Virus record (IMG/VR): IMGVR_UViG_3300045988_154566
Coordinates: 6,167-70,166 of that record
From: a virus
Strand: one strand, 5' to 3'
DNA: 64,000 nt
Position numbers and translations under genes: made by a program. Shown here piece after piece: positions 1-28,200 of the stretch. The notes beneath the pieces were generated by a model. That model did not search any database and was not told where the DNA came from. It saw only the letters and a program-made list of their open reading frames with translations. Numbering within the stretch: position 1 is the stretch's first letter; every line of letters begins with the position of its first letter.

Positions 1-468
1 TAATGTTTTACACTCTGCGACGAAATACTTCGCATGATATTTTTCTACAATAGCCTTTACAACAGTGCTTTGCTTTTGTGTCTCACAATAGACATTGAAT
101 AATATATACTTCTCAATATCTATGTAGCTATATGGAATCCTTAAAGTGTCTAAAGTTTCCATTAACTCTTTAGCATAATGTGGCTTCACTGTCATTTCAA
201 CTTTCCATAACTTATCTTTTGTACTCTTTTCTTCAATCAGCTTTACAATGTAAACTCCGATAAGATTACACATAGCTATTATGAAAGCCTTTAAGAGAAG
301 CGGAAGGTCGCACATCATATATATTACTACAATAGTATATAGACCATAAGCTAATGCGTTGATTGCGGCGGCAGCCCCTTTTCCGCACTTGACAGTTATT
401 AAAGACTTAGCTGTCTGAATGATAACATTTACAATGTTAAGGATAATAAATAAAACTAATAAATTCAT
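1..468 (-). CDS. partial membrane protein running off the window start; hydrophobic N-terminus followed by a DUF2179/YitT-C-terminal-like domain
   Basis: Manual reverse translation from ATG at 466-468: MNLLVLFIILNIVNV...VKPHYAKELMETLDTLRIPYSYIDIEKY. No stop codon before position 1. Confidence 0.3.
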   Translation of the reverse strand, partial: MNLLVLFIILNIVNVIIQTAKSLITVKCGKGAAAAINALAYGLYTIVVIYMMCDLPLLLKAFIIAMCNLIGVYIVKLIEEKSTKDKLWKVEMTVKPHYAKELMETLDTLRIPYSYIDIEKYILFNVYCETQKQSTVVKAIVEKYHAKYFVAECKTL

Positions 469-485
469 AATTAATACCTCTTTTC

Positions 486-692
486 TTAATATTCTTTTAC
501 TTCTCTTACTAAATCAACTGGTTCAGGTGGCACATCTGCTTCTGTAAGGTCTAACCAACAATGTCGTTCAAGCCATCTCAAAAGAACTAACTGTTCTCCT
601 GTTATGTGTAAATATGTTGGCAGATTATCTTCATCATCATAATTGCCCTCAAGGTCTAATTTCTTAATACTTACATCATATTCATCTTTCAT
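486..692 (-). CDS. hypothetical small acidic protein (early region)
   Basis: ORF track lists 486-698 with a TTG start. ATG at 692 is preceded by a GAGGT ribosome-binding site. Confidence 0.45.
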   Translation of the reverse strand: MKDEYDVSIKKLDLEGNYDDEDNLPTYLHITGEQLVLLRWLERHCWLDLTEADVPPEPVDLVREVKEY

Positions 693-772
693 AATCAATA
701 CCTCATTTCTATTTTATGCTCTTGTTAAGGATACTTGTTTTCAATCTCATTTGTTATCTGTTCCCTTGAACA

Positions 773-806
773 ATTATAATTATAACAGATTATAAGCAAA
801 TGTCAA
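773..806 (-). promoter_or_regulatory. leftward sigma70-like promoter (TTGACA-16-TATAAT) for gene 486-692
   Basis: Reverse complement of tgtcaa at 801-806 and of attata at 779-784. Conserved leader GATAACAAATGAGATTG lies at 742-758 on the minus strand. Confidence 0.45.
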
Positions 807-850
807 GTGGTTTTGGGAAAATAAAAAAATTTTTTATTTTGATTTTTCTC

Positions 851-925
851 TTGACAAAAATGCCAAAATGTGATATAATATCAAAATACCGGCGGAGCCG
901 GACGCCCACAGGGCGGTCTTTTTTG
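851..925 (+). promoter_or_regulatory. rightward consensus promoter cassette: TTGACA-17-TATAAT, conserved start-site hairpin CCGGCGGAGCCGG, then hairpin plus T-tract
   Basis: TTGACA at 851-856, TATAAT at 874-879, hairpin at 889-901, CGCCCacagGGCG followed by TCTTTTTT at 903-925. The same cassette recurs at 2396 and 3783. Confidence 0.55.
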
Positions 926-933
926 AGCATAAA

Positions 934-965
934 AAGCTGATGACTATTAGTTTAGTCATCAGCTT
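934..965. terminator. bidirectional hairpin terminator (AAGCTGATGACTA-ttagtt-TAGTCATCAGCTT)
   Basis: Perfect 13-bp inverted repeat. A/T tracts on both sides. Lies just downstream of the minus-strand gene 970-1335. Confidence 0.5.
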
Positions 966-969
966 ACAG

Positions 970-1335
970 CTACTTTTTCTTTCTATGTTTTATCAGCGAT
1001 AGCGAGTATTCATTCTCGCCTATGTTAAAGGTTAATTCTTTCTGCGGATTAGCTGTTTGGACATTACTAATTTTGCCATTCAGTGCCATTCCCTCAAGTA
1101 AGGTTTTTAAACACTCGATAAAATCAACTTTTTCATCATCGAGTTTTACTTCTCGTGGCTTCCGCGGTTTCTTTTCAGCTTCCGCACCCTTAACATAATT
1201 CTTTATTCCCTTAGCTTTGATTTCCATTTCCGCCATTTCCATAGCTTCTTCTTTTGTGACTGGCTCTCCGTCTGCTTCACATTCCTTGAAAATCTTTAAA
1301 GCTAACTTCTCTAAGGCTTCTTTTTTACTATCCAT
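970..1335 (-). CDS. hypothetical K/E-rich small protein
   Basis: ATG start with AAAGAGG ribosome-binding site. Confidence 0.5.
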   Translation of the reverse strand: MDSKKEALEKLALKIFKECEADGEPVTKEEAMEMAEMEIKAKGIKNYVKGAEAEKKPRKPREVKLDDEKVDFIECLKTLLEGMALNGKISNVQTANPQKELTFNIGENEYSLSLIKHRKKK

Positions 1336-1391
1336 GCCCTATACCTCTTTCTTTTAAATTGGGCGGTGTATTTCAACCGCCCATCCGCAGA

Positions 1392-1769
1392 TTAGACAAG
1401 TGAGAAGATTGCCTTGCCCTTTTCCTCTTCTCTCTTTGCAGTGCCATTGGCAACCATAATCTTGAGAAGTGCAACTACTTTCTGATTAGAAAGCGCCTGA
1501 ACCGCTTCATCAGCAGGGAAGTCTTTCATAGCCTTGAGCATAATCTGAGTAGAAGTACCCTTGAAACCGTCAAGGACAACCTTGAGCTTCTCAACCAGTG
1601 CTTCATTAGCCTTAGCTTTCTTATCAGAACCAGCCCCAGCCTTAGCTTTCTTCTTCTCAAGGAGTTCCTTTTCGTGCATAAGATATGTCTTGTACATCTC
1701 ATTATCCTGAATAAATTCCTCATTTAACATAGCCTCGATAACCTGTAACTTTGTAATCTTCTTTTCCAT
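1392..1769 (-). CDS. hypothetical K/E-rich small protein
   Basis: ATG start with GAGGT ribosome-binding site. Hairpin GGGCGGT...ACCGCCC lies downstream at 1347-1370. Confidence 0.5.
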   Translation of the reverse strand: MEKKITKLQVIEAMLNEEFIQDNEMYKTYLMHEKELLEKKKAKAGAGSDKKAKANEALVEKLKVVLDGFKGTSTQIMLKAMKDFPADEAVQALSNQKVVALLKIMVANGTAKREEEKGKAIFSLV

Positions 1770-1881
1770 AATGCAATACCTCGCTTTATTATAATATTTG
1801 AAGCTGATTTTTATTTTTTAATGTGGTCGATTGATGGCTTCCTTTCCTTTCCACATTTATATGATAGCACATTTTATTGCG

Positions 1882-2172
1882 CTAGTCAAGCATAAATAAT
1901 GTCATTCCGGCTATTTCCTTTTCTACCACTTCTAAAGTATCTAAATGAATAGTGGCTCTGACTATCTTCCAACAGCCAGTTTCAAACTTGTTGTGTTCAT
2001 GGCGGCGTGGTAGTCTCTCTGCGGCATGGACTGCACTCTGACAATCTTCAAATACACCATCTATAACATAAGCAACTTGCGTTCCCATGCAATCTAAGTA
2101 TCTCATTACTTTTAAGACATACTTAGTCTCTGTTTTTCTTGGTACATGCTTAGTCTCTGTTCCCATAACCAT
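1882..2172 (-). CDS. hypothetical protein (Cys/His-containing)
   Basis: ATG start. Leftward promoter TTGACA-17-TATAAT lies about 2185-2215, with a poly(A) tract upstream on the minus strand. Confidence 0.45.
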   Translation of the reverse strand: MVMGTETKHVPRKTETKYVLKVMRYLDCMGTQVAYVIDGVFEDCQSAVHAAERLPRRHEHNKFETGCWKIVRATIHLDTLEVVEKEIAGMTLFMLD

Positions 2173-2226
2173 TACTTCCTTTCTATACCCTTATTATATC
2201 ACTTAGGTATCTATTTGTCAAGCATT

Positions 2227-2261
<35 letters not shown>

Positions 2262-2330
2262 TTCGGGTTGTTTAGCAATCTCATTTGTTATCTCCCTTAC
2301 AAGTATCATTATAGCAGACTGCCCCAAAAT

Positions 2331-2446
2331 TGCAATAGTCAAAACTGCACAAGATTTCGGGAAAATTTTTGTGCAACTTTATATCATTTTTCTCTTGACA
2401 AAAAGCGCTAAGTATGCTACAATAGTGAAATACCGGCTTTGCCGGA
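2331..2446 (+). promoter_or_regulatory. divergent promoter cassette 2: operator palindrome TGCACAA-N15-TTGTGCA, rightward TTGACA-17-TACAAT, start-site hairpin CCGGCtttGCCGG
   Basis: Palindrome at 2346-2375. TTGACA at 2396-2401, TACAAT at 2419-2424, hairpin at 2434-2446. Leftward TTGCAA-16-TATAAT with conserved leader at 2276-2292. Confidence 0.5.
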
Positions 2447-2473
2447 CGCGCGCTGCGCGGTCTTTCTGTGACA

Positions 2474-2498
2474 AAAAAAGTAGGCGTTTCCGCCTACT
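2474..2498 (-). terminator. hairpin GTAGGCGtttcCGCCTAC with T-tract on the minus strand; terminator for gene 2494-2679
   Basis: Inverted repeat flanked by A7 on the plus strand, which is T7 on the minus strand. Confidence 0.45.
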
Positions 2499-2679
2499 CT
2501 TCATCTGTATATTCAATATTGAATATTGTTCTGCTTGTATTATCTAGTGCAAGTACATCATCAAAAATTTCATTAAAGCTATATGAATCTAACTCTGCGT
2601 CACTAGAAATTATGTTACAAAATTTTTTAATTACATCATGCTCCGCCTTTGACATTTTAACAGTTCTTACAATATTCAT
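2494..2679 (-). CDS. hypothetical small protein
   Basis: ORF track. Compact tandem arrangement with neighbouring minus-strand genes. Confidence 0.35.
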   Translation of the reverse strand: MNIVRTVKMSKAEHDVIKKFCNIISSDAELDSYSFNEIFDDVLALDNTSRTIFNIEYTDEE

Positions 2680-2683
2680 AATA

Positions 2684-2920
2684 TTATTCCTCCATTTTTC
2701 TTATTTTACATTTAGTATATCCATATTTTTTTAAAACTGTACCTTTCCAGTAGCGTTTCGCGCATATCTTTTCAATTCCTCTCTGTATGATTGGCGCTCT
2801 TTTTTCTTTATCCTTAGATAAATCCATACTAGCGTCCTCTTGTTCATAAGAGACTATACTGGCGACTGGTCTATATTGACCAGTCGTACAAAATAATGTA
2901 ACTTGATAATTTACTAACAT
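2684..2920 (-). CDS. hypothetical small basic protein
   Basis: ORF track. Abuts neighbouring genes. Confidence 0.35.
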   Translation of the reverse strand: MLVNYQVTLFCTTGQYRPVASIVSYEQEDASMDLSKDKEKRAPIIQRGIEKICAKRYWKGTVLKKYGYTKCKIRKMEE

Positions 2921-2922
2921 GA

Positions 2923-3117
2923 TTATTCCTCCTCATACTTATACTTTGTTATAACTTTTTCGTCCTCTTCAGTAACTAGCATACAGTTGCTACCTATTAA
3001 CTCTGCTAACTCACAAGCCTTATGATATACTTCATATGCGGCTTCCATACCAGTTACTCTTGCTATTATTGTTATTCCTAAAATAACCCAATATGTCATA
3101 ATATCAACTCCTTTCAT
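2923..3117 (-). CDS. hypothetical small protein with C-terminal hydrophobic segment
   Basis: ORF track. Confidence 0.35.
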   Translation of the reverse strand: MKGVDIMTYWVILGITIIARVTGMEAAYEVYHKACELAELIGSNCMLVTEEDEKVITKYKYEEE

Positions 3118-3129
3118 TTTAAAATAATA

Positions 3130-3477
3130 TTACAAATATTTATTACATGCCCTTTCAATATCTTGTCTTATTTTTTCTCTATACTTCTTAGGAATAGCTT
3201 TAAAGAACTTTTCCTTATCCTCCGTGGATAATTGCGTATAAAAATATTTAGTCTCATTAGCTGAAATATGGAAAGGATTTACTCCTCTTTTCAGCATAAA
3301 AAGATATGTTCTACTAAAAACAATAGTCTCACTAAATCTTGAGAAAACTGCTTTTCCAAAAGTGAGGATAATTAACTGACCATCTCTCAATTCATAAGTA
3401 TTAACTTTCAATTGAATAAAATCCATAACAATAGCTCCAACAACAAATGCAATAATAATCTTAATCATAAATATCAA
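3130..3477 (-). CDS. hypothetical membrane protein (N-terminal transmembrane segment)
   Basis: ORF track. Hydrophobic N-terminus IIIAFVVGAIVM. Confidence 0.4.
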   Translation of the reverse strand: MIFMIKIIIAFVVGAIVMDFIQLKVNTYELRDGQLIILTFGKAVFSRFSETIVFSRTYLFMLKRGVNPFHISANETKYFYTQLSTEDKEKFFKAIPKKYREKIRQDIERACNKYL

Positions 3478-3489
3478 CTCCTTTCAACT

Positions 3490-3652
3490 AATAATAATCA
3501 TAATAAGATGAACAACTACAATAGCTAGGCTGGCTATTCTTCCATACATAAGTTAAACTATCATCTTCTTCACACTGACTGATTGCCTCTGCCTCTGTCT
3601 CAACTTCCCAACCACAATCTGAACTATCTTCTCTGTTATACACTATCCACAT
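3490..3652 (-). CDS. hypothetical 54-aa acidic Cys-containing protein (below the ORF-track length cutoff)
   Basis: Manual translation: MWIVYNREDSSDCGWEVETEAEAISQCEEDDSLTYVWKNSQPSYCSCSSYYDYY. AAAGGAG ribosome-binding site 7 nt upstream. Confidence 0.4.
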
Positions 3653-3733
3653 AATATCAATCTCCTTTCAAGTGGGTACTTCTTACTTCTCTATTATAAT
3701 ACCATGTCAAGGGTAGAATTGCAAGTGACAAAA

Positions 3734-3833
3734 TGCACAATATTTTGGGATAATGTTTGTGCAATATGTCAACTTTTTTCCCTTGACAAAAATCCTAAAA
3801 GGTGGTATAATAGGCAAATTCCGGCGGGGCCGG
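3734..3833 (+). promoter_or_regulatory. promoter cassette 3: operator palindrome, TTGACA-17-TATAAT, start-site hairpin CCGGCgggGCCGG
   Basis: Palindrome at 3734-3763. TTGACA at 3783-3788, TATAAT at 3806-3811, hairpin at 3821-3833. Confidence 0.5.
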
Positions 3834-3850
3834 ACGTGCTCCGCCCGCCC

Positions 3851-4110
3851 AGTTAGTCTAGTCTAACTTAGGTTAGTTTGAAGTAACAAGTGTTTTATAA
3901 GCCTAACAATAGTTAGCTTAATCTAATTATAGTTAGTTTGAATTAACAAGGATTAGCTTAATCTAACTAGGGTTATAAAATCCTAACTAGAGTTAGTTTG
4001 AATTAACAACTGTTAAAAATTGCTAACTTTACTTTTATAAAACGAACTTTGATTCGTCTTCTCTAACTTTAATTTTATACAGCTAACTACAGATAATTAC
4101 AACTAATTAA
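3851..4110. repeat. iteron array 1: about 9 copies of the 14-bp palindrome CTAAC-N4-GTTAG interleaved with 3 copies of GTTTGAA(T/G)TAACAAG
   Basis: Examples: ctaacttaggttag, ctaacaatagttag, ctaattatagttag, ctaactagagttag. Degenerate copies continue to about 4110. Confidence 0.8.
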
Positions 4111-4140
4111 AATTAGAGAACGCAAATCAAATTGGGGAGG

Positions 4141-4166
4141 GTTGCCGCTACTTGGCAACCCAAACC
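4141..4166. other. 8-bp-stem hairpin GGGTTGCC-N7-GGCAACCC overlapping the 3' end of gene 4148-4429
   Basis: Inverted repeat seen in sequence. Confidence 0.5.
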
Positions 4167-4429
4167 TTTAATAATATGTCGTCATATTTAGTCGACTGGT
4201 CATCAACATCAAATAACATCTTGACATTAGTTCCCTCTGCGATATCACAACCATCATACTCCCAGATATCGCCCGCCCTATCAGCAATCCGCACAAATCC
4301 GTTGTCATTGCTGATTACTCTTCCTTCTCTTGTACAGTGACCCTCAAGATATATTGCGCCTAAGAAAAGCGTTCCTAAAACTAAACCCAGGGCTACTCTC
4401 TTAACTATTCTCTTACTATTGTTTTTCAT
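4148..4429 (-). CDS. hypothetical secreted or membrane-anchored small protein
   Basis: ATG at 4429 with GAGGT ribosome-binding site. The ORF track extends to a GTG at 4444. N-terminal hydrophobic signal-like segment. Confidence 0.45.
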   Translation of the reverse strand: MKNNSKRIVKRVALGLVLGTLFLGAIYLEGHCTREGRVISNDNGFVRIADRAGDIWEYDGCDIAEGTNVKMLFDVDDQSTKYDDILLKVWVAK

Positions 4430-4493
4430 AATTTTAAACCTCACTTTTCATTTTTATTTTTATATGCGGGCTTGGCTTCCCAAGCCCTAATCA

Positions 4494-4802
4494 TTAACAG
4501 TATATTAAGGACATGTCTGCCCACTTCAATATTGATATCTGTGCGCACTGTCTACCCAGTGCTAATGCGTCTCTTTTTGTAGACACTCTGTGGCTCTTGT
4601 CTACAAAGTAAACTCCATTTTCTAACCATAAGCCGCAATTTCCACCGTATGCCCTAACGGCTTTAATTGCCTCTTCGGGAGTTGTAACCATTACTCCCTC
4701 TGTAGCTACTTGATAACCACTCTTGTATGTGATTATCTTACCATTCTTGAGGGTAAGTCCTCCACACTCTGTTATCTTTCTTATTGTCCTAATGTTTATC
4801 AT
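4494..4802 (-). CDS. hypothetical protein
   Basis: ATG start with GAGGT ribosome-binding site. Confidence 0.45.
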   Translation of the reverse strand: MINIRTIRKITECGGLTLKNGKIITYKSGYQVATEGVMVTTPEEAIKAVRAYGGNCGLWLENGVYFVDKSHRVSTKRDALALGRQCAQISILKWADMSLIYC

Positions 4803-4840
4803 ATTATTACCTCGCTTTCTTTTTCTTGGGAGGTCCCGGC

Positions 4841-5113
4841 TTAATAGCCGAGACTTATTAATTTGCTAATGTAAGAGTTTAAAACTGCAATTAACTGTTT
4901 TTCAGTCATTCCATTTTTAAACTGCGGTGCGCTTGCTGTGACTGGTGGAAGCTCATGCCCCTCAACAACTACTGAAAAGCTACATTCAGGGTCTTTATTG
5001 ATAATATTGAAAACTGCCTTAATATGTAAGTTTTCCTTATAAAGTCCACTGTAGCCCTCTTTAGCTACAAGTACTAAATTTAATCCTTTACTTCCAAAAT
5101 TTAACTTTTTCAT
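4841..5113 (-). CDS. hypothetical protein
   Basis: ATG at 5113 with GAGG ribosome-binding site. The ORF track extends to a GTG at 5176. Confidence 0.4.
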   Translation of the reverse strand: MKKLNFGSKGLNLVLVAKEGYSGLYKENLHIKAVFNIINKDPECSFSVVVEGHELPPVTASAPQFKNGMTEKQLIAVLNSYISKLISLGY

Positions 5114-5437
5114 AATAACCTCTTTTCTGTCTCTCTCTTGAAAGACTATCAATTTTATTTTACGGTTTTCGTTCACCGCACCATTATAATATCATACCCA
5201 GTTTTTAATGTCAACACTTTTTTCAAAAATTTTTAAAATTTTTTTCATGCCCTATTTTCAAGGCTTTTCACGCACCCAAACACATGCAGCAGACAGTTAT
5301 TTGACTACATTTTTAGTCATCAATAGTGACGATGTGTCTACTTTTGTAGTCAGATAGTCACTCATTATGGGATATGATTAGTCTTGTAGTCGCACCCAAT
5401 GTCGATTTGAAAAGTTTAATTAAGTAGTCAAATAGGC

Positions 5438-5470
5438 AAAATGCGGTGCGCTTTATGGGAGGAAGCGCGC
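5438..5470 (+). promoter_or_regulatory. conserved module AAAATGCGGTGCGCTTTATGGGAGGAAGCGC, copy 1: hairpin GCGCTT/AAGCGC with GGGAGG in the loop and a tiny ORF MGGSAP
   Basis: Near-identical copy at 6895-6926. Both are preceded by AT-rich TGACTA-containing sequence with TTGAAA-18-(-10-like) spacing. Confidence 0.45.
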
Positions 5471-5487
5471 CGTTCAAAATAACTAAC

Positions 5488-5610
5488 CAAAGTTAGTCAA
5501 GCTTAACAATAGTTAGACTAAACTAATTAGATTTCGGGAAGACTAACTTGAGTTAGTTTGAATTAACAAGCATTAAGCTTGACTAACTTAAGTTAGTTTC
5601 CTTAAACTGG
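5488..5610. repeat. iteron array 2: about 5 copies of CTAAC-N4-GTTAG plus one GTTTGAATTAACAAG
   Basis: Copies: ctaaccaaagttag, ttaacaatagttag, ctaacttgagttag, ctaacttaagttag. Followed by hairpin GTGCGGA...TCCGCAC at 5617-5639. Confidence 0.8.
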
Positions 5611-5794
5611 GTGAGTGCGGATTAGCAGTTTCCGCACTTATCTAATAAACTAGACATAAAGCCAATAATGAACTCCATAAGACTAAGAAGTTCGTCATCA
5701 GATATGACTATGTGTGTAAGTACAAAGTCAATCTGACTATTGGCTTCTGTGACAGTGGAGCATTGCTCCACCATCACTATTGCTTCTATAAAGG

Positions 5795-6271
5795 TCATGC
5801 TATCACCTCCCCTGTTTTCTCATTCACCAAGTCACATCTAAGACCTAGTATCTTGCAGGCTTTAGCAGTATTGTAGAACACTGCCTGTGCCTTGCCATAA
5901 CTCTCAATCTTTGTAAAGATTGGAGTATTGCCATTATAAATTCCATAAGATTCAGCTTCTTTTGTCTGAATCTCATAGTCGCCCACACAATGAGCGACAT
6001 GGTCGAGAATGAAGTTTAACACTTCACCCTCAAACTCCAACTCTGGAGCTGAATTGAGGCAATCAACCTCATATTCCCAAGGGAACCATTCTCCCTCAGT
6101 GAATATTGCCCCTCTTAAAAGGAGTTGACAGAGGTGCGGAGCTGCTGAATACTCCTTGACCTCCTCAAGACGGATAACAGCCTCTCCGTCTGTGCAGAGG
6201 TAAGTTCCTTCCTCTGCTTTACCATAGCCTGCCAGTGGCATGTCCACTGGCATTTTAAAGCCTCTAATCAT
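5795..6271 (-). CDS. hypothetical acidic protein
   Basis: ATG start with GGAGAGGAAGG ribosome-binding site. Confidence 0.5.
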   Translation of the reverse strand: MIRGFKMPVDMPLAGYGKAEEGTYLCTDGEAVIRLEEVKEYSAAPHLCQLLLRGAIFTEGEWFPWEYEVDCLNSAPELEFEGEVLNFILDHVAHCVGDYEIQTKEAESYGIYNGNTPIFTKIESYGKAQAVFYNTAKACKILGLRCDLVNEKTGEVIA

Positions 6272-6319
6272 ATTTTATTCCTTCCTCTCCGTCAAGCCGA
6301 TGAGCCAGCTAAATCTATA

Positions 6320-6583
6320 TTAGACTGCTGGAATACTTCCACAGCCCCAAGGACCACTATAGTCCCTGTCAAAAATGTGAGCCTGTGTCCTATTAAGGAA
6401 CACACCTACACAATTGTAATCAACAGTTGTGTAGTCATCTTCGATATAATCGAAGATTTCTCCACGCAATTTGTTTAAAGTTGCGCGAAGCTCACCCTTA
6501 CCATAAGGGGCTTTGAACTCCACAATGGAAGTTCTTTCTATGAGAAGGTTCTCCTTCTCCATTATTATGATTACCTGATTCAT
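6320..6583 (-). CDS. hypothetical protein
   Basis: ORF track. Tandem with 5795-6271. Confidence 0.4.
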   Translation of the reverse strand: MNQVIIIMEKENLLIERTSIVEFKAPYGKGELRATLNKLRGEIFDYIEDDYTTVDYNCVGVFLNRTQAHIFDRDYSGPWGCGSIPAV

Positions 6584-6695
6584 ATCTTACCTCTTTCTGC
6601 CCTTGTCTTTCAAGGACTGTTTATTTTATTTTGTCGCCATTGCCTTACGACACCATTATAATACACCCACCGCACACTCATTACAATATGCAAAA

Positions 6696-6725
6696 TGCAC
6701 AAAGTTTGACAGATATTTTTGTGCA
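6696..6725. promoter_or_regulatory. operator palindrome TGCACAA-N15-TTGTGCA, third copy, overlapping a TTGACA -35 element
   Basis: Same inverted repeat as at 2346-2375 and 3734-3763. Confidence 0.5.
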
Positions 6726-6867
6726 ATTTGTACAAAAGAAAATACACCAGTTGGAAGCACCGAACATTTGTTCACCGTTTTGTTCAGCTCCGAGAATAGT
6801 TTAGTTTTTTAGACGCATGAGTTGTGGGAAAATTTATTTGACTATTTGATTAGACTTTTAGAATTTG

Positions 6868-6926
6868 AAATGTTTAAATGACTAGAAATATAGTAAAATG
6901 CGGTGCGCTTTATGGGAGGAAGCGCT
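6868..6926 (+). promoter_or_regulatory. rightward promoter-like TTGAAA-18-TATAGT followed by conserved module copy 2 (GCGGTGCGCTTTATGGGAGGAAGCGC)
   Basis: TTGAAA at 6868-6873, TATAGT at 6892-6897. Module at 6895-6926 is identical to 5438-5470 over about 30 nt. Confidence 0.4.
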
Positions 6927-7171
6927 CCGACGATTTGAAAATGTACGGGACTATACTCTTGATGTGTACTGATTATTTTTTGATAAAACTACAGACCATA
7001 CGCAAGAGGTAGCCAGCAGTTTAAAATAAAAAAAATTTTTCTCTTTTACCCGGGGATATATTATGGGAAAATGAAAAATTAATTCGATGAAATCATATTT
7101 AGCTGGTACATTCACACACCCCAAATTTTTTGAAATTTAAAATACGAAACACCCCAAATTAAAATACGAGA

Positions 7172-7477
7172 TTAATTCCGAACAACTCTCCCATGTTTCC
7201 CCGTTTGTTTATATGCCATAAATAAGTTATTTAATTTAATATTATCTCCATCTCCTAAATTAATTAATAGGAAATCACAATTTTTTATAATATCTGCGGT
7301 TTCCGCATTTTTTATGTAGCGAGTCGGCGCACCAACCGATTCAGCCCACTTAGCGGCAATACTATCTTTATTTGTTACCAACATATAAAATAAATAGCAT
7401 TGACTTTCCGCAATTAACTTCTGCATTTCCGCATCAATATCTTCAATTTTATTAAAACCAATTGCCGCGACTATCAT
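7172..7477 (-). CDS. hypothetical protein (possible Rossmann-like fold)
   Basis: ORF track. MIVAAIGFNK N-terminus and LINLGDGDN motif. Confidence 0.35.
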   Translation of the reverse strand: MIVAAIGFNKIEDIDAEMQKLIAESQCYLFYMLVTNKDSIAAKWAESVGAPTRYIKNAETADIIKNCDFLLINLGDGDNIKLNNLFMAYKQTGKHGRVVRN

Positions 7478-7543
7478 TCTATCACTCCTTTATAATAATT
7501 ATATCAAAAAATTTTTTTCTTTTCAAATTATCTACTTTTGTCC

Positions 7544-7602: not shown

Positions 7603-8685
7603 ATGGAGCAACAAAAAGAAAATAGTGATTATATTAAAATGGATTTTAGTATTGAATCACCTGCAGAAAGAGTAGAAAAAGTAAAAGAAATTATTGCCAA
7701 CACTCCTCCTGAAAGATTAACTCATTCTTACTTAGAAAAATTAAGTAACTACATAATTTTTGCTATGGATAAAGAAGAAAGAAAACAAAATAAAATCTTA
7801 ACAGATAACCATATGCAAACAGTAAATGTAAGAGAGACATCTTTTGAAGGACTTGTAGGCAGATTAGAAAATGGCGAAGATGGCATATATAATATGATTG
7901 CGAATGACAAAAATATTATATTTAAACCAAAATTTGAAATCACAGATGCGGATGTCGCGGAAATGCCTGAGTTAAGGGAACTCCGCAAGGGTATAGAAGA
8001 ATTAAAGGAACAATTAAAAACAGCAAGAGGCAAAAAAGCATATCAAATAAAAAAACATATCATAGAAGCAAGTCAAGACCAGTATGTAATAAAAAATTCT
8101 TATAAAAAACCTATCTATTGTATAAATCCCCTTAAAAGTGTAGCAAAATTAGATTTAGATGAACATGTAACTGTTGATGAAAATGATGAAATTCATACTG
8201 ATGGTATTTTAAGTTTACTCGTGCCGCAACATATTTGCGCGGTATTGTGTAATTATGAAAAATTAAGAATCCAAACTTGGAATAAACTAAATAGTGATGT
8301 TAAATGGTTTCTCGTAGATTTAGACAATCTAATAGATGAGACCTTAAAATATGATTATCCAATATATTATGATATTACTCTTTTAAAGATTCGCGGCTAT
8401 CAGAATGTAGATATCCAAGAATACTTAGAAATAAAATATAAAGTAAATCATTCTGTTGAATATATATCTTCTCTTTGGCGGAATAAGATACCAAAATTAC
8501 TCGCGGAAAAGGCACAAGAGAAATGGTTAGTTTGGTATTATACTAACAAAGCAGAAGGAAAATGGAAAAAATGTTCAAGATGTGGGCAAATTAAGTTAGC
8601 TAGTAATAGATTCTTTTCAAAAAATAATACAAGCAAAGACCATTTTTACAGTATATGTAAGTGTTGTAGAAATAAAAGAAAATAA
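7603..8685 (+). CDS. hypothetical protein with C-terminal Cys4 zinc-ribbon-like motif
   Basis: C-terminus: CSRCGQIKLASNRFFSKNNTSKDHFYSICKCCRNK. Confidence 0.5.
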   Translation: MEQQKENSDYIKMDFSIESPAERVEKVKEIIANTPPERLTHSYLEKLSNYIIFAMDKEERKQNKILTDNHMQTVNVRETSFEGLVGRLENGEDGIYNMIANDKNIIFKPKFEITDADVAEMPELRELRKGIEELKEQLKTARGKKAYQIKKHIIEASQDQYVIKNSYKKPIYCINPLKSVAKLDLDEHVTVDENDEIHTDGILSLLVPQHICAVLCNYEKLRIQTWNKLNSDVKWFLVDLDNLIDETLKYDYPIYYDITLLKIRGYQNVDIQEYLEIKYKVNHSVEYISSLWRNKIPKLLAEKAQEKWLVWYYTNKAEGKWKKCSRCGQIKLASNRFFSKNNTSKDHFYSICKCCRNKRK

Positions 8686-8703: not shown

Positions 8704-9996
8704 ATGGGCGCACAAGAAGTAGAGCCAGGGAAATATTACTGTGAAAAATGTCGTAAGACAATGGGCGCAGTACAATTTTTTACTTATAAAGATGGTAGTA
8801 AAAGCGAATTATGTAAACAATGCTTAACTATGCATATTAATAACTGGGAGCCAGAAACATTCAAATGGCTATTGGAAAAATTTGATGTTCCATATCTCCC
8901 TTGGGAATGGGATAAGATTAGAGACAAACAATATGCGAAAGACCCCTATAAAATGACTGGAAATAGTGTTTTTGGTCGTTATCTCGCGAAAATGAAATTA
9001 AATCAGTGGAATAAATATCATTGGTCTGATACTGAGCGGCTGGTGCGGGAAGCAGATGAACTTGCTAATAGGGCGGCTGCGGCAAAAGAAGAAGATGAAA
9101 AACTTGAGAATATGCGGAAGCTCGCGGATGAAGGTGCAATTAGTGAATCTCAATATCAAACATACGCGGAAACGCAGATTGAGAAACCTATACCTAAGCC
9201 AGAGAGTTTACCCAACCCATATGAGAATGGACAAGCTAATCCGGCATATCGGGCTGCCGCGCGAGCATCTGTTTATCCTGTAAATAATAATCCATTTGAA
9301 GAAATTGATTTACCAGATGTTGGAAATGATTTAACACAAGAGGATAAGATTTATTTAGCTACAAAATGGGGTAGATTTTATTCTGCGGAAGAGTGGGTAA
9401 CTTTAGAAAAGAAATATAATGATTTTACAAATTCATTTGATATACATTCTGCGGCAACTATAGATACTTTAATTTTTATTTGTAAGACTTCATTAAAAAT
9501 GAATCAGGCTCTTGATAGCGGAGACATTGAATCTTATCAAAAATTATCAAGAGTTTATGATGCACAAATGAAAGCTGCGAAGTTTACGGAAGCACAGAAT
9601 AAAGAAGATAAAAGTAATGACTTTGATGCTATTGGTTGCATAGTAGAGTTTTGTGAAAAAGAGGGCGGATTTATTCCAAGATTTTATACAGAAACTCCGC
9701 AGGATAAGGTTGATGTTGTTATTGCAGATGAAAAATCTTATGTTAAGTCTCTTGTTGATGGTGATTCTGGATTAGCGCAACAGATAGAGCAGTATCTTAA
9801 GAAGCGTGAAATCCTTGAAGAACAAAAGAGAAATAAGGAAAAAGCAAAATTAGAAGGTAAAGAGCAGATTGAATTAACAGATAAAGATATTCAAGAGTAT
9901 ATAGAGCATCAACAGAAAGAAAAAGAAAAAGATAATATCGCGGAAGATGATGATGAAGATAATTTTGGAAGTCTCTTTAGTATGGAGGTTGAGTAA
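8704..9996 (+). CDS. hypothetical protein with N-terminal Cys4 zinc ribbon (same motif as 7603-8685) and acidic C-terminus
   Basis: N-terminus: YYCEKCRKTMGAVQFFTYKDGSKSELCKQCL. Its position immediately upstream of the terminase makes a small-terminase or DNA-recognition role possible. Confidence 0.5.
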   Translation: MGAQEVEPGKYYCEKCRKTMGAVQFFTYKDGSKSELCKQCLTMHINNWEPETFKWLLEKFDVPYLPWEWDKIRDKQYAKDPYKMTGNSVFGRYLAKMKLNQWNKYHWSDTERLVREADELANRAAAAKEEDEKLENMRKLADEGAISESQYQTYAETQIEKPIPKPESLPNPYENGQANPAYRAAARASVYPVNNNPFEEIDLPDVGNDLTQEDKIYLATKWGRFYSAEEWVTLEKKYNDFTNSFDIHSAATIDTLIFICKTSLKMNQALDSGDIESYQKLSRVYDAQMKAAKFTEAQNKEDKSNDFDAIGCIVEFCEKEGGFIPRFYTETPQDKVDVVIADEKSYVKSLVDGDSGLAQQIEQYLKKREILEEQKRNKEKAKLEGKEQIELTDKDIQEYIEHQQKEKEKDNIAEDDDEDNFGSLFSMEVE

Positions 9997-10619
9997 TGAG
10001 TTTACAAAGTATACTAGACCTTTCCGCGGAAAGAGATAATAAAAAAGTAGGTTGTTCAGAAGAAAGATTAAGAGAATGCCTTCCCGAATTGCGGAAGGCT
10101 ATTGCTTTTTATCGTGAATATCCAGATATCTTTGTTGATGATATTAAAGGACCAGATTGTAACTTCCAATTTTATTTTTATCAGAGAGTTTTCTTAAGGT
10201 CGGTTATGAGACATCGTCGAGTCTATGCAGTTTTTCCACGTGCATATAGTAAATCATTCTTGACTATGATGGCTTTAATGTTGCGTGCAATTCTTTATCC
10301 AGGTGCGGCATTATTTGTAACTACAGGTGGAAAAGAGCAAGCTGCAAGTATTACAATCGCAAAGATTGAAGAAATTTGTCGGCTTATTCCCGCGCTAAAT
10401 AAAGAAATTAATTGGGATAGAGGAGCCTCAAAAAAATCAAAAGATAATGTAAAATATATCTTTAAGAATGGCTCTACTATTGATATTCTTGCGGCAAGGG
10501 AGTCATCCAGAGGTCAACGTCGTACAGGTGGAGCTATGGAAGAGTGTGTACTTATTGATGGAACTGCTTTGAACGAAATAATTATTCCTAGACTTATAAG
10601 GTTGTGGGACCTAATTTAG
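9996..10619 (+). CDS. terminase large subunit, N-terminal ATPase part (exon 1 or N-terminal fragment)
   Basis: Walker-A-like VFPRAYSKSF. Walker-B-like ECVLIDG near the end. Start overlaps the upstream stop (TAATGA). Confidence 0.6.
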   Translation: MSLQSILDLSAERDNKKVGCSEERLRECLPELRKAIAFYREYPDIFVDDIKGPDCNFQFYFYQRVFLRSVMRHRRVYAVFPRAYSKSFLTMMALMLRAILYPGAALFVTTGGKEQAASITIAKIEEICRLIPALNKEINWDRGASKKSKDNVKYIFKNGSTIDILAARESSRGQRRTGGAMEECVLIDGTALNEIIIPRLIRLWDLI

Positions 10620-11700
10620 TAATAAATTAGTGCATGAACGGTGTGAACCCATTGGTTATGGGGTGTAGTATAAGGATATACTGCTAACGGTTAGGCTATA
10701 AATAAAGTGAGACCGTGCTAAGTTTATATTTGTTATAAAAAAGTGTAGAGACTATCCAGAGGAGAAATACGCCTGGTTAGGGCTGAGAATAACCACAGCT
10801 CGAAGCGCACCGCAACTTTTTAAAATTTTTGGTCAAAAATATAAAATAAAATTGTTCATTTTTTTAATTTTATTGAGGGTATGTATATCCCGGGATAAAA
10901 CTGAGTTATAGAAAGGAATTAAAAAAATGATTCAATGGAAAAAAATTTTTATAGATGAAAAAGAGACTAATTACAGTGTTTCTAGCACTGGAGAGGTTAG
11001 AAATGATATAACTAAAAAAATATTATCACAAAGAATTCAACAAGGGTATAAACATGTAACTTTATCATTACCAAATAAGATAAAATCATGTCGAGTTCAT
11101 AGACTTGTAGCACAAGCCTTTATTAAGAATCCTGAAAACAAGCCCTATGTGAATCATATTGATTGTGATAGAAGTAACAATAATGTTGAAAATTTAGAAT
11201 GGGTAACGCCAAAAGAGAATTCTCAAAAAGCGGTTCTAGAAGGTAAATTTTTAAATAGTTCCCATTTAAGACCTGTTGTTCAATATAATTTAGCAGGGAA
11301 AAAGATTAGAACTTTTGAAAGTGCCACTGAGGCAGCAAGACAGTTAAATTTACAACAATCTAAAATAACAGAATGTTGTAGAAGAAATAGAAAAAGAACC
11401 GGAGAATATCAATGGAGATATGCAGATGAAGAATGTCTTCAATTAGAACCTATTCAAAAACAAAATCACCCTGGAGTGAAAGTTGCAAGATGCAACGATG
11501 ATTTAGTTATATTAGAAATTTATAATTCTTATAAAGAAGCAGCAAATGCAATAAAAGGTAGTTATCAAGCTATTGCTGCAATATGTAATGGAACAACTAT
11601 AAATATTCATCATAAAGGCTGGAGATGGAAAAAAGTTGATGATATAGTCCAATCAAAAAAAGATTGACAACTAATGTTGATAGACGACTCGCAGATGGTA
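10600..11700 (+). mobile_element. putative group I intron, or a free-standing homing-endonuclease insertion, interrupting the terminase large-subunit gene and carrying an HNH ORF
   Basis: About 300 nt of structured non-coding sequence at 10620-10926 with GAGACC/GAGACTA-type elements. The HNH ORF has its own ribosome-binding site. The terminase ATPase motif III (ITTAG) resumes downstream in the same frame as exon 1. Boundaries are approximate. Confidence 0.45.
10927..11667 (+). CDS. HNH homing endonuclease (NUMOD4 N-terminus, HNH_3 core, NUMOD1-like C-terminal DNA-binding repeats)
   Basis: Motifs WKKIFIDE...YSVSSTGEVRN and HRLVAQAF...NHIDCDRSNNNVENLEWVTPKEN. Confidence 0.8.
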   Translation: MIQWKKIFIDEKETNYSVSSTGEVRNDITKKILSQRIQQGYKHVTLSLPNKIKSCRVHRLVAQAFIKNPENKPYVNHIDCDRSNNNVENLEWVTPKENSQKAVLEGKFLNSSHLRPVVQYNLAGKKIRTFESATEAARQLNLQQSKITECCRRNRKRTGEYQWRYADEECLQLEPIQKQNHPGVKVARCNDDLVILEIYNSYKEAANAIKGSYQAIAAICNGTTINIHHKGWRWKKVDDIVQSKKD

Positions 11701-12815
11701 GTAGAGACCCTAAAGAGACAGTAAATAAAAGTCAGGTATATATTACGACTGCGGGATGGAAGAATTCATTCGCATACGAGCACCTCATTGAGATGTTAAT
11801 TGATTCAATTCTAGACCCAGGTGAAGTAATGATATTAGGTGGAACATATGAAGTTCCAGTTGAAGCGGGCTTGTTAAGTGAAGACTTTGTAGACCAGTTA
11901 AAATTACAAGGTACTTTCAATGATGCCTCCTTTGACCGAGAATATCGGAGTATTTGGTCAGGAGATGCGGAAAATGCTTTCTTCTCTAATGAATTATTTG
12001 ATAAATATCGTCAATTACTTCAACCAGAATATGAATTCAGTTCAAGAAGTTCAAAGAACGCATACTATATACTTTCAGTCGATGTAGGTCGTTTTGGATG
12101 TACAACTGAGGTTATGGTTATAAAGGTAACGCCGCAAGTGCAAGGAACAGCATTGAAGACTCTTGTTAATATTTATAGCTATGATGAAGAACATTTTGGA
12201 GTTCAAGCTATAAATATAAAAAAACTTTATTACAAATATCGTGCGAGAACCGTGGTTATAGATGCCAATGGTCTAGGTGCTGGACTTGTGGACTTTATGA
12301 TAATAGGTCAAGAAGACCCGAAAACAGGAGAATATTATCCACCTTTTGGAGTAGAAGGCGGAACTTTCGATGATTGGTATGACCAGTATAAGAAATTTAA
12401 AACAGATGATATGGTTAGAGATGCGATGTATTTAATTAAGGCTAATGCGCCAATCAATACTGAAGCTCATAGCTATTGTCAAACTCAAATATCTAGTGGA
12501 AAAATTAAATTTTTAATTGATGAAAGAGATGCAAAAATAAAGTTAATGTCTACAAAAGTTGGTCAAGAAATGACTCCAGAGCAACGTGCAGAAAGGTTGA
12601 TACCATTCACTTTAACCACGATACTAAAGGAACAGATGTTGAATCTGGTGGAAGAGAACGAGGGTGTAAATATTATTCTTAAGCAAGCTAATAGAGGAAT
12701 TAAGAAAGATAAATTCTCTGCTTTTGAGTATGGATTATATTATATAAAACAGCAAGAAGATAGGAAAAAAGATAGACATAGTAGAGATATTTCAAAGATG
12801 ATGTTTTTCAGTTAA
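11664..12815 (+). CDS. terminase large subunit, C-terminal part (rest of ATPase plus RNase-H-like nuclease)
   Basis: ITTAGW motif III. Nuclease motifs ILSVDVGRFG and VVIDANGLGAGL. The ORF-track start is a TTG overlapping the HNH stop. The true 5' end is probably a splice junction near 11690-11720. Confidence 0.6.
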   Translation: MTTNVDRRLADGSRDPKETVNKSQVYITTAGWKNSFAYEHLIEMLIDSILDPGEVMILGGTYEVPVEAGLLSEDFVDQLKLQGTFNDASFDREYRSIWSGDAENAFFSNELFDKYRQLLQPEYEFSSRSSKNAYYILSVDVGRFGCTTEVMVIKVTPQVQGTALKTLVNIYSYDEEHFGVQAINIKKLYYKYRARTVVIDANGLGAGLVDFMIIGQEDPKTGEYYPPFGVEGGTFDDWYDQYKKFKTDDMVRDAMYLIKANAPINTEAHSYCQTQISSGKIKFLIDERDAKIKLMSTKVGQEMTPEQRAERLIPFTLTTILKEQMLNLVEENEGVNIILKQANRGIKKDKFSAFEYGLYYIKQQEDRKKDRHSRDISKMMFFS

Positions 12816-25287: not shown

Positions 25288-28200
25288 ATGGCAGGAAGAA
25301 AAAGAATTGATATTGATATAGGTTTCAATACCGATACCTCAAGAGCAAAAGCTCAAATTCAAGATTTACAGAAACAGATAGTTAATTTATCAGTTGCCGC
25401 AAAGCAGAATACAGCAACTAATACTTTATCTTCTGATATTTCCAAAGCTGTAATAGAAGCTAGTAAATTAAATGGTATATTATCACAATCAATGACTTTC
25501 AAGGGAGATAACCTTGACTTATCTAAATTTGTTACAAACTTAAATAAGTCTGGTACTACTATTTCTCAAGTTCGTAAGAATTTAGAATCATTAGGTCCTC
25601 AAGGTCAAAAAGCATTTACATCTTTAGCGCAATCTATTATGTCTGCGGAAGTTCCTTTAAGACAGTCTGAAGGACTTTTAAAGAGTTTTTCTACTACTCT
25701 TACAAATAGTGCGAAATGGACTGTAGCTTCAGGTGCCGTTCATCAAGTACAGACAGAATTTAGTAAAGCTTTTGAGTATAGTAGAAAGCTTGATAAATCA
25801 TTAAATGAAATTAGAATAGTATCTGGAGAAAGTTCAGATAATATGGCTAAATTTGCTAAACAAGCAAATGAATCTGCCAAAGCTTTAAATACAACAACAA
25901 CTGCATATACAAATGCGGCATTAATCTTCTATCAGCAAGGTCTTGATACTGCCGCAGTTAAAGAGCGTACTGATGCAGTTACAAAGATGGCAAGTGTTAC
26001 AGGAGAGACTGCTGCAGATGTATCTTCTTACATGACTGCTATTTGGAATAACTTTAATGATGGTTCAAAAAGCGTAGAATACTTTGCAGATGTTCTTACT
26101 GCATTAGGTGCGGCAACTGCATCTAGTACAGATGAAATTGCGGAAGGTCTTGAAAAGTTTGCTTCTATTGGTAATACCGTAGGTTTATCATATGAATATG
26201 CTACTTCTGCTCTTGCAACTGTTGTTGCAGAAACTCGTCAGTCCGCAGATACTGTAGGTACTGCATTTAAAACATTATTCGCGCGTATCCAGGACTTAGA
26301 GTTAGGCAATACATTAGATGATGGAACAACATTAGGTCAGTATTCTAAGGCTCTTGAAGCTATTGGGGTAAATATCAAAGATTCAAAGGGCGAAATTCGT
26401 GATATGGACGATATCTTAGACGATATGGGTTCTAAATGGAAGACTATCTCTAAGGATACTCAGATTGCGGTTGCACAAGCAGTTGCAGGTACTCGTCAGT
26501 ATAGTCAATTAATTGCCTTAATGGATAAGTGGGATGTTTTCCAAGAGAACTTAAATACAGCTAAAGGTGCGGAAGGTTCTTTACAACAGCAAGCTGATAT
26601 TTATGCAGAATCATGGGATGCCGCATCTAAGAAAATAAAAACTTCATTAGAAGAAATTTATTCAAATCTTATTGATAGTAAAACTATGGTTGATTTAATG
26701 AAATTCCTTAGTAAAGCTATTGAAGGTTTTGGTCATTTTATTGATTCTGTTGGTGGAGTTAGAACTGCTTTTATTTTATTAGCAAATACTATAATTTCTA
26801 ATCAAGGTCCTCAAATAAGCAAATATGTTGATAAAGTTGTTGATAACTTTAAAATCAAATTTGGTATTATGGGCAAAGAGATTGAGGCAACTAGAGAGAA
26901 AGCTCAAAAAGAATATAAAGCTATGATTGCAGGAATGGATATAAAGACTCCAGAAGACCGTGCACAAGTAGCTAATATGAAAGCAAATTATGATATTGAA
27001 AATGCTATTTTTGAGAAGAAAAAAGAATTAGCTAAAATAAATGCAAATTTAACTGAATCTCAAATAGAACAAATAGCCAATGAGAAAGCTCAATTAAAAC
27101 AATTAGAAGAAGAATCTGAAGTCACAGCTAGGATTTATGATACTAAAAAGAAAGCTAGACATGCTGCACATGATGATGTCTTATCTCTTGGTAGTAGATT
27201 TAAAAATACCAATTTATCTTTAGATAAAGTAGAAAATATAAAAATTCGTAATGACATTCTTTCAAAGTTTTTACCTGAAGATACTTTACAAGAAGCTTAT
27301 GCAAAAAAAGTATTGTTAGGTGAAATGGATGAAATGGAGTCTGAAAAATATCTCCAAGAGAATTACTCTAAAAATGAAAGAGTTAGACAGCGTAACCAAA
27401 ATTTTAGAGATATGGTAAAACAAGTTGACCCTAATAAAAAGTTTTCAAAGCAAGAGCGTAGACCTTCACGAACTACTAAAATAGAAGATTATAACTCTTA
27501 TGCTCAAGTATTAGAGGATACAAGAAAAGCATTAGAGTCTCAAGATTATCAAGAACCAATACAAAAAATTCTTCAAAAACAATTTACTAAAGATTATAAT
27601 GCTGCGATACAAGCATATGAGACAAATGAGACTAATATTTCTACTAGTAATAAAGTTTTAAATTTATTTGATATGGAAAAAGTTAAGTCAGGTAAATTTT
27701 CTTTAAAAGGTATGCAAGAAACATTATCCACTCTTTATAATTCTTCAAAAGAAAATAAGCGAATGATTGATGACCTTATGAGATTAGATGAATATAAAGA
27801 AAAGGATGATATTAAAAAACTTATTACTGGTCAAGATGTAGAAGGTATAAATAAATCAGACTATACTCATATGCTACAAACAATTGAAAAGAAAAGAGCA
27901 GGTTATCTTACAAAACGAGATGATATTAGTGGTAATATCAGAGGACTTTTACAAGATTATGGTTTTGGAGCTCCTGATGTTGCAAAAATGTCTGATGCAC
28001 TCGATAAACAGCATAAAATAATAGAAGATACAGATGAATCTTTAACAGCTCATGTAAAAGTATTACTGGATGTTCAAAATCATTCTAATTCAGTAGTTGA
28101 TTCTATTAACAAGATGGGATTTTCTGTAGGAAGCATCGGTGAAAACTTTACTAATGGCGCGAATGCAATGAGTAATTTTGCAATGACTGCTAATAGTGTT

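Follow-up and report, generated by a model that had tools for sequence, protein, structure and literature searches.

Repressors of the DtxR/IdeR family are metal-dependent winged helix-turn-helix (HTH) proteins, and a precedent for a phage-borne operator of a host iron repressor exists in corynephage beta, which carries the tox operator under the control of the host DtxR. Titration by repeated sites is known from the Fur titration assay and, for DnaA, from the datA locus. Examples of repeat arrays that small dimeric proteins bind are ParR-parC of pSK41 (20-bp repeats), the heptad arrays of the inc18 omega protein, and AspA of pNOB8. In the P1 and F replicons, repeat arrays flank genes. Synthetic decoy repeat arrays titrate transcription factors (PMC3322331). 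Two identical dimers occupy the DtxR consensus TTAGGTTAGCCTAACCTAA from opposite faces of the DNA (PMC7762939). By arithmetic, this consensus consists of two overlapping TTAG-N6-CTAA sites with an offset of 5 bp. Here, we analyze two repeat arrays in a 64,000-nucleotide stretch of viral DNA (positions 6,167 to 70,166 of the IMG/VR record IMGVR_UViG_3300045988_154566; this whole stretch is referred to as the window). On balance, the sequence comparisons lean toward these being operator arrays for a host DtxR-family repressor, and that a host protein of this family binds them is the somewhat firmer part of this reading. The arrays are located as follows:

3852–4116, no strand assigned: array 1, 13–14 units in a strict 20-bp register
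5472–5607, no strand assigned: array 2, 6–7 units in the same 20-bp register as array 1

A sequence-only reading had described both clusters as at least 14 copies of a CTAAC-N4-GTTAG dyad. The repeats are real: the exact dyad was found six times in the window (0.05 expected; six or more in 0 of 100 shuffles), starting at 3863, 3903, and 3983 in array 1 and at 5483, 5543, and 5583 in array 2, and is confined to 3863–3996 and 5483–5596. Allowing two mismatches, 13 copies lie within the two clusters, with chance-level counts elsewhere in the window, and at least 14 is a fair count once the degenerate units at 4023, 4043, 4063, and 5523 are included. What had been missed is the register. A YTAAC-like pentamer returns every 20 bp with zero indels from 3863 to 4103 (13 units) and from 5483 to 5603 (6–7 units), and the period determined by TRF is 20. 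Searching for GTTAG-N6-CTAAC with at most one mismatch gave 11 matches in the window (1.76 expected), all of them within the clusters, namely eight in array 1 (3852–4027) and three in array 2 (5492, 5512, and 5552). The tail of array 1 (4020–4116) is degenerate and AT-rich and keeps the CTAAC-like half alone, its units starting at 4023, 4043 (CGAAC), 4063, 4083, and 4103 (CTAAT...ATTAG). A second motif, GTTTGAAKTAACAAG, was recovered in the four copies reported (3876, 3936, 3996, and 5556; 0.05 expected), but not as a separate element: reading GTTAG-TTTGAA-KTAAC-AAG, it represents a variant unit in the 20-bp register, multiplied by a 40–60-bp higher-order duplication. The assessment that the arrays are neither CRISPR nor a simple satellite holds, considering the 20-bp period with 4- and 6-bp gaps and the lack of an Rfam match; neither 24–40-nt repeats with unique spacers of similar length nor a known repeat or RNA family was found in them.

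Comparison with relatives changed the definition of the unit. We fetched 45 relative loci independently of the motif, using the sigma-like protein encoded at 7603–8685 of the window as marker (50–63% identity). Such relatives keep GTTAG-N6-CTAAC 26 times while the gap from CTAAC to GTTAG varies, being 4 in 11 cases and 12–14, 20, or 23–24 in the others. Judged from these alignments, the true unit is GTTAG-N6-CTAAC with the core TTAG-N6-CTAA, replacing the CTAAC-N4-GTTAG dyad formerly regarded as functional. Among the relatives, it is kept at array periods of 19, 20, 28–30, and 39 bp; spacings in locus L034 are 20, 29, 30, 28, and 39 bp, and L031 contains a second unit set at 28–29 bp. Locus L010 (7900–8140) hosts 12.7 near-identical copies of TAGCTTTAACTAAGTTAGT with a 19-bp period, in which GTTAG-N6-CTAA is kept and the linker is shorter by one base, showing that the 20-bp period is not obligatory. 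Overall, unit spacings run in multiples of ~10 bp. In a set of 676 distinct units from phages, the ten core bases show 90–99% conservation and the spacers are free, and a position weight matrix agrees with the N6 unit. A is preferred directly before the unit (position -1, 62%) and T directly after it (+1, 66%), so that the dyad described earlier is really CTAACT-NN-AGTTAG. A palindrome running into the would-be hairpin loop suits a DNA dyad and not an RNA tetraloop. Within three close genomes, the core TTAG/CTAA is variable at 7 of 168 positions, compared with 28 of 210 in the spacers (p = 0.002); array 1 is conserved in L004 and L039, the latter showing an exact deletion of one 20-bp unit. 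The invariant unit, the extended palindrome, and the core conservation point to a symmetric dimer on double-stranded DNA, not to an RNA stem-loop. Sequence comparison thereby supports the earlier proposal of iterated double-stranded sites for a dimeric (winged) HTH protein.

The same data bear on two other explanations. Rightward transcripts might carry a 5' hairpin followed by CUAAC-NNNN-GUUAG stem-loops and sponge an RNA-binding protein or mimic an RNA. A promoter and a 5' hairpin indeed precede both window arrays, a hairpin shows a compensatory change, and the array folds far better than shuffled sequences (z = -6.4); however, the opposite strand folds equally (z = -6.0), so the fold signal simply follows from the palindromes. 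Moreover, the conserved complementary T/A at the loop ends would leave a 2-nt loop, unit spacings are multiples of ~10 bp, most arrays in other phages lack an inward promoter, the promoter-hairpin modules also occur array-free, and Rfam returned nothing at gathering score, with sub-threshold palindromic matches on both strands. Such RNA arrays are therefore highly improbable. Cas12a-like repeats, an RNA anti-CRISPR, and an RNA sponge were dropped on the basis of missing strand asymmetry and a missing Rfam match. Still less credible is a selfish or neutral minisatellite that spreads by slippage and recombination and is functionless. Copy changes by whole units, the homogenization of some arrays, and their patchy distribution would suit it, but the core half-sites are conserved relative to the spacers, the 676 distinct units share ten core bases with free spacers, and the identical motif stands in operator position of host promoters. 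Compared with the Gram-positive LexA (Cheo) box CGAAC-N4-GTTCG, the dyad differs by one base in each half-site, the unit at 4043 being CGAACTTTGATTCG; a LexA site was dropped as a candidate, since GTTAG-N6-CTAAC is the invariant unit and the host sites lie at feoAB and not at SOS genes.

These host sites emerged from a scan for two tandem dyads, which returned 22 stretches in bacteria (one genome per species), 30 in viral contigs, and at least 120 in metagenomes; most of the stretches belong to early regions of phages sampled from gut and rumen. Upstream of feoA-feoB, at a distance of about 30–60 bp, eight bacterial loci have TTGACA-N5-(GTTAG-N6-CTAAC-N4)x2.5–3, with the units beginning at the -10 box instead in some of them. 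They comprise two binned Lachnospiraceae, one Spirochaetales, and five unbinned metagenome contigs. In four of the eight, a DtxR-family gene is adjacent, for which both Pfam domains Fe_dep_repress and Fe_dep_repr_C were found, the closest named homologues being metal-dependent regulators of Treponema. Whether seeded with DtxR, MntR, or the L061 protein, profile searches of 1.9 Mb of loci retrieved these four open reading frames (ORFs) alone. Among loci selected via the regulator, L218 has a perfect unit in the interval that separates the regulator gene from a Zip transporter gene, and L220 a unit with one mismatch 17 bp upstream of a regulator-ZnuA-ABC operon. The combination characteristic of a DtxR/IdeR operator, a metal-uptake promoter with a nearby DtxR-family regulator, is thus found in bacterial loci and not in phage loci.

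The site itself, with TTAG...CTAA half-sites 6 bp apart as in a one-dimer DtxR/IdeR site, is present in the phage arrays, and in terms of half-site sequence and spacing it is what one DtxR/IdeR-type dimer would contact. In some metagenomic arrays (L119, L135, and L160), the N6 spacer reads GTTAGS, generating a near-canonical DtxR box every 20 bp. Neither the window nor any of the phage loci contains a DtxR-family ORF, and a low-sensitivity scan of viral contigs was also empty. With ~20 units and no such regulator in the available phage sequence, the binder is most likely the metal-loaded repressor of the host. The arrays would accordingly form tandem operators on double-stranded DNA, each 20-bp unit providing one GTTAG-N6-CTAAC as the site for one repressor dimer. 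A multi-operator switch, one of the roles suggested earlier, is possible, with a host metalloregulator as its likely binder rather than a phage protein.

Several observations weigh against a host iron repressor. The unit is absent from three of the five regulator-selected loci. The DtxR-adjacent feoAB loci look Treponema-like by sequence, and the Lachnospiraceae feoAB loci contain no regulator within 8 kb around, which leaves the connection to a Firmicutes regulator indirect. Members of the DtxR family differ in specificity, and the TroR operator of T. denticola is unrelated in sequence. The canonical 19-bp DtxR box TTAGGTTAGSCTAACCTAA, i.e., two overlapping dimer sites 5 bp apart, is missing from the window arrays; the window contains zero GTTAG-N1-CTAAC, and the N6 spacers are TTTGAA, CTTAAT, and similar. 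The phage's own coiled-coil winged-helix protein (1392–1769, described below) could, judging from its structural model, bind DNA, and ~85 kb of the phage genome lies outside the window scanned. Lastly, the motif is not exclusive to DtxR proteins, as XRE-type regulators use the same double dyad. In 12 loci, mostly from candidate phyla including Saccharimonadales (L049, L063, L067, L070, L076, and seven metagenome loci), it precedes a 74-aa XRE-family gene by 17 bp, with a PLD-like nuclease gene alongside. This paired arrangement of two dyads just upstream of an XRE gene was not found at the phage arrays, and no HTH_3 protein is encoded among the ORFs beside them. As a separate observation, a conserved element CTAAC-YYYY-GTTAG-CCGWAG-CTAAC-(TTCG/TACG)-GTTAG-CGAAGG was seen at L050 7708, L052 7675, L058 7762, and L060 2202, that is, in three Patescibacteria contigs and one metagenome-assembled genome contig binned as Gammaproteobacteria, and it recurs on several contigs of a single genome. 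With its UNCG loop it may be a structured RNA, whose half-sites are alike by chance.

Among phages, the arrays are widespread and patchy at the same time. Two IMG/VR contigs (145–150 kb), 86–95% identical to the window, retain both arrays, and similar arrays exist in about seven lineages (L010, L023, L024/25, L031, L034, L037, and the window group), while ~15 of 22 related lineages with the same genome layout are array-free. Two of the array-free loci (L030 and L042) nevertheless encode a homologue of the gene at 4494–4802, which lies between the window arrays; of four loci selected via this gene, one has an array, one scattered single units, and two nothing. This patchiness marks the arrays as accessory; genomes of this type do not need them as a cis element. 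Within the 1.9 Mb of loci, 119 arrays of 4–27 units (at most one mismatch per unit) were counted, the largest one, L089, reaching ~40 units with degenerate ones included. Several arrays per contig are common, some phages having 3–5 within 10 kb. Arrays adjoin GC hairpins, and many lie 100–300 bp upstream of a strong early promoter; a consensus promoter directed into the array was found for 17 of 104 and one directed away for 28 of 104. Units are homogenized in L054 and L010, and copy number changes by whole units. The half-site, in contrast to this variability, is invariant across unrelated phages. The earlier statement that nothing comparable is annotated stands, as a near-match search of 50,697 phage records gave nothing and the distant mode only two unannotated fecal contigs. 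As arrays are patchy and multiple, they were also rejected as terminase pac sites and as a T5-like stop signal for injection.

This distribution also speaks on genome maintenance, i.e., replication-origin iterons, where the promoter would prime or activate and the AT-rich tail would melt, or a partition centromere like parC of pSK41, both of which had been put forward before. The strict register corresponds to direct 17–22-bp repeats in helical phase, as in iterons, array 1 ends in a degenerate AT-rich tail (4020–4116), a strong promoter fires into it, and the paired arrays flank genes in the manner of P1 or F. On the other hand, arrays are missing in about two thirds of the relatives and in two to three of the four loci selected via the cassette gene, some phages carry 3–5 arrays per 10 kb or 27–40 units, and the same units act as feoAB operators in bacteria. 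No initiator-like match was obtained among 18 early-region ORFs and no partition NTPase or adaptor (ParA, ParM, TubZ) among the ORFs of 1–8.7 kb. A GC-skew switch, which had been suggested as a sign of an origin, is not located at the arrays; the turn at ~7–8 kb (minimum near 7.5 kb) follows the switch in gene orientation instead. We hence regard both maintenance roles as very unlikely.

The variable and homogenized copy number, the gain and loss of whole units, the multiplicity, and the patchiness fit a role set by the number of sites and not by their placement, as do the terminator insulation of the arrays and the lack of a fixed relation to promoters. Upon phage DNA replication, thousands of sites would be generated, holo-repressor would be sequestered, and host iron uptake (feoAB) would be derepressed. 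That such a sink is the primary role of the arrays is a tentative proposal, which we hold with less than even confidence. Its generalization, that phages of gut and rumen use decoy arrays of the operator of the host iron repressor, without any protein of their own, to force iron import by DNA alone, is more speculative still. In the literature searched, no description of a phage-borne DtxR or of phage-borne decoy arrays was found.

A local role has to be considered in respect to the elements that surround the arrays:

3730–3767, no strand assigned: inverted repeat TGCACAA...TTGTGCA upstream of the promoter at 3783, a distinct cis motif of early regions
3783–3811, plus strand: rightward sigma-70-type promoter, TTGACA-17-TGgTATAAT, 12/12 with TG, perfect extended -10
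3821–3849, no strand assigned: GC-rich hairpin between this promoter and array 1, terminator-like in leftward reading, closing off array 1
4140–4160, minus strand: hairpin at the 3' end of the leftward gene 4148–4444, the other boundary of array 1
5186–5214, minus strand: leftward promoter TTGACA-17-TATTAT, driving the three-gene cassette
5406–5435, plus strand: weak promoter-like element TTGAAA...AAATAG before array 2, with a poor -10, failing the consensus scan
5444–5472, no strand assigned: GC-rich hairpin CGGTGCGCTT...AAGCGCGCCG before array 2, with a U-rich tail when read leftward
5613–5640, minus strand: hairpin at the 3' end of the leftward gene 5622–5798, bounding array 2

As these hairpins are terminator-like when read leftward, both arrays sit between two hairpins for leftward early transcription. 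Each cluster had been described as preceded by a rightward promoter with a conserved 5' hairpin. This is accurate for the promoter of array 1, which points into the array and is antisense to the leftward early genes, and not for that of array 2; the two hairpins come from distinct sequence families, and such modules also occur array-free. The promoter at 3783–3811 is part of a 118-bp module composed of the TGCACAA...TTGTGCA inverted repeat, the promoter, and GC hairpins; its further copies (798–915 and 2342–2459) lack an array and have a T-run straight after the hairpins (889–915 and 2433–2459), which are terminator-like paralogues of the hairpin at 3821–3849. From the T-run right after the hairpin, a transcript of ~35–40 nt is predicted for these two modules. 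The element at 5405–5472 has an array-free paralogue at 6861–6929, where the promoter-like part (6865–6894) scores 10/12; the hairpin at 5444–5472 shows a compensatory G:C to A:T change in L039. Altogether, five rightward promoter plus GC-hairpin modules of two sequence families were noticed (798–915, 2342–2459, and 3730–3847; 5405–5472 and 6861–6929), lying antisense among leftward early genes, three of them with 11–12/12 consensus promoters and an extended -10.

At such a site, a coated array ~40 bp past each rightward promoter module (3783 and ~5407) would halt antisense transcripts before they reach the leftward genes whenever metal is abundant. We consider it doubtful that this local roadblock makes antisense transcription metal-dependent in this phage.

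Two further repeat motifs were noted in this region. TGCACAA/TTGTGCA occurs in the window at 3730–3767, 2342–2379, and 6692–6729, and in the early regions of relatives (L006–L046) at 4–22 per 10 kb (0 in L010) compared with 0–2 downstream. This enrichment is independent of array presence; the motif also adjoins arrays in unrelated contigs, e.g., L054. It is probably, by its distribution, the operator of a conserved phage regulator, possibly of the winged-helix family of 1392–1769. A cluster of TGTAGTC/TAGTCA (5290–5440; TGTAGTC at 5303 on the minus and at 5345 and 5385 on the plus strand, TAGTCA at 5314, 5355, and 5425; ~40 bp apart) is located between the leftward cassette promoter and array 2 and shows no window-wide enrichment.

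The genes between the arrays, together with their neighbors, were inspected for candidate binders. As described before, the clusters flank three leftward ORFs:

4148–4444, minus strand: 98-aa membrane-anchored protein, whose family also occurs close to arrays at 15 further loci
4494–4802, minus strand: 102-aa protein, a very conserved early protein with a confident model (pLDDT 91) of an alpha/beta fold
4841–5113, minus strand: 90-aa protein (111 aa from a GTG at 5176)

The notion that this cassette is specifically bracketed did not hold, as arrays occupy many intergenic slots in many phages. The protein of 4494–4802 has more than 3,700 homologue clusters, the best 120 listed being 66–76% identical except for a few near-identical ones, and its gene is not obligately linked to arrays; its model contains neither an HTH nor a ribbon-helix-helix (RHH) fold, and a PDB fold search gave no significant match. 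Homologues sit on phage contigs of up to 205 kb. Pfam, PHROGs, and PADLOC as well as a PDB sequence search returned nothing on the cassette and neighboring small proteins, and none of the 16 early ORFs scanned had an HTH or RHH match in Pfam. The one winged-helix candidate is encoded at 1392–1769 (minus strand), a 125-aa early protein modeled as a long coiled-coil helix with a C-terminal winged helix (pLDDT 88.5). Foldseek relates this model with a probability of 1.0 to SSV1 F-93, YodB, pNOB8 AspA, and the Fur DNA-binding domain, while a profile comparison of its family with the DtxR family gave a probability of 16%. The family is present in essentially all relatives, array-bearing or not, often twice per early region.

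The main alternative to the host repressor is accordingly a phage-encoded dimeric DNA-binding protein that coats the arrays as a multi-operator switch or as a roadblock for the rightward antisense promoters; this could be the 1392–1769 protein or an unseen Cro/XRE-like protein, the resemblance to feoAB operators being convergence or mimicry. Besides the winged helix and its Foldseek matches, this is backed by 12 loci in which XRE-family proteins have the same double dyad for an operator of their own and by the position of both window arrays and of L089 just downstream of rightward promoter modules. Nevertheless, we judge it unlikely. The winged-helix family also occurs in array-free relatives and fits the TGCACAA/TTGTGCA repeats better, the early ORFs scanned lack an HTH/RHH match, the half-site shows no drift among very different phages, and an inward consensus promoter exists at only 17 of 104 arrays. 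Furthermore, no gene family is linked to arrays, neither in the 10-kb flanks of relatives nor within 2.5 kb in 169 loci. Relatives of the 4494 and 4148 genes recur next to arrays, as do a 155-aa family and a HAD-like nucleotidase; no family accompanies every array, and none of these families carries a DNA-binder annotation.

The genomic context is that of a segment of a large Firmicutes-type phage with a GC content of ~31%. Its large terminase is nearest to those of gut phage Phass-1, Geobacillus E3, and Enterococcus phages, and SPbeta-type YonB, YonD, and YonG domains are encoded in related loci. Positions 1–7,500 are occupied by small leftward genes with a strong promoter each, followed from 7,600 by a rightward block starting with the sigma-like protein (7603–8685, plus strand; PHROG sigma factor match phrog_5767, E = 2e-49) and continuing with packaging and structural genes. 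The sigma-like protein has a cysteine-rich C-terminus with weak endonuclease VII/HNH matches. The large terminase gene (9996–12815) is seemingly split into an N-terminal (9996–10619) and a C-terminal part (11664–12815) with a 246-aa homing endonuclease-like ORF (10927–11667) in between; in the Enterococcus phages EF1 and EF5, the terminase match is likewise broken by an annotated "HNH homing endonuclease". The structural block includes two giant ORFs of 3,081 aa (25288–34533, plus strand) and 1,812 aa (34638–40076, plus strand).

If the reading as host iron-repressor operators is true, the arrays would represent a widespread phage means to couple infection to iron or to seize iron control, with more than 100 arrays in the small sample fetched, and noncoding DNA decoys would join the tools of host takeover. 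For Lachnospiraceae and Treponema of the gut, it would, moreover, define an uncharacterized DtxR-type regulon (feoAB), and it would provide a sequence signature linking uncultured phages to hosts using this regulator.

Set against the described systems, the arrays share features with each and coincide with none. With C-protein-like XRE operators they have CTAAC-N4-GTTAG-N6-CTAAC-N4-GTTAG in common, which is there located 17 bp upstream of the regulator gene; those systems, however, consist of two dyads only, always beside XRE and PLD-like nuclease genes, whereas the phage arrays have no XRE gene nearby. The layout of the XRE loci resembles a controller-protein operator. The 20-bp period and the phased tandem sites for a row of dimers are like those of pSK41 parC, yet in contrast to centromere arrays no partition ATPase or adaptor adjoins, the arrays are dispensable among relatives, and the half-site matches the box of a metalloregulator. 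Like DtxR/IdeR iron boxes, the units have TTAG/CTAA half-sites with a 6-bp gap per dimer. The DtxR/IdeR box is a single 19-bp site with two dimers 5 bp apart on opposite faces, overlapping one regulated promoter, whereas the phage units are single-dimer sites repeated every 20 bp, 7–13 times (27–40 elsewhere), and mostly off the promoter core. The closest likeness is found in the host feoAB operators, with an identical unit, the alternating N6/N4 spacing, and the same flanking A/T preferences; for these operators of gut Lachnospiraceae and Treponema-like bacteria, no description was found in the literature searched. There, 2.5–3 units extend from just after the -35 box over the -10 box and the transcription start, while the phage arrays are longer and lie between terminators, at least ~40 bp downstream or 100–300 bp upstream of a promoter. 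The literature searched contained no report of a phage genome carrying a natural decoy array for a metalloregulator of its host. With titration systems, finally, the arrays share many tandem, here putative, high-affinity sites without a cognate gene and, as predicted here by analogy, an effect that would scale with copy number.

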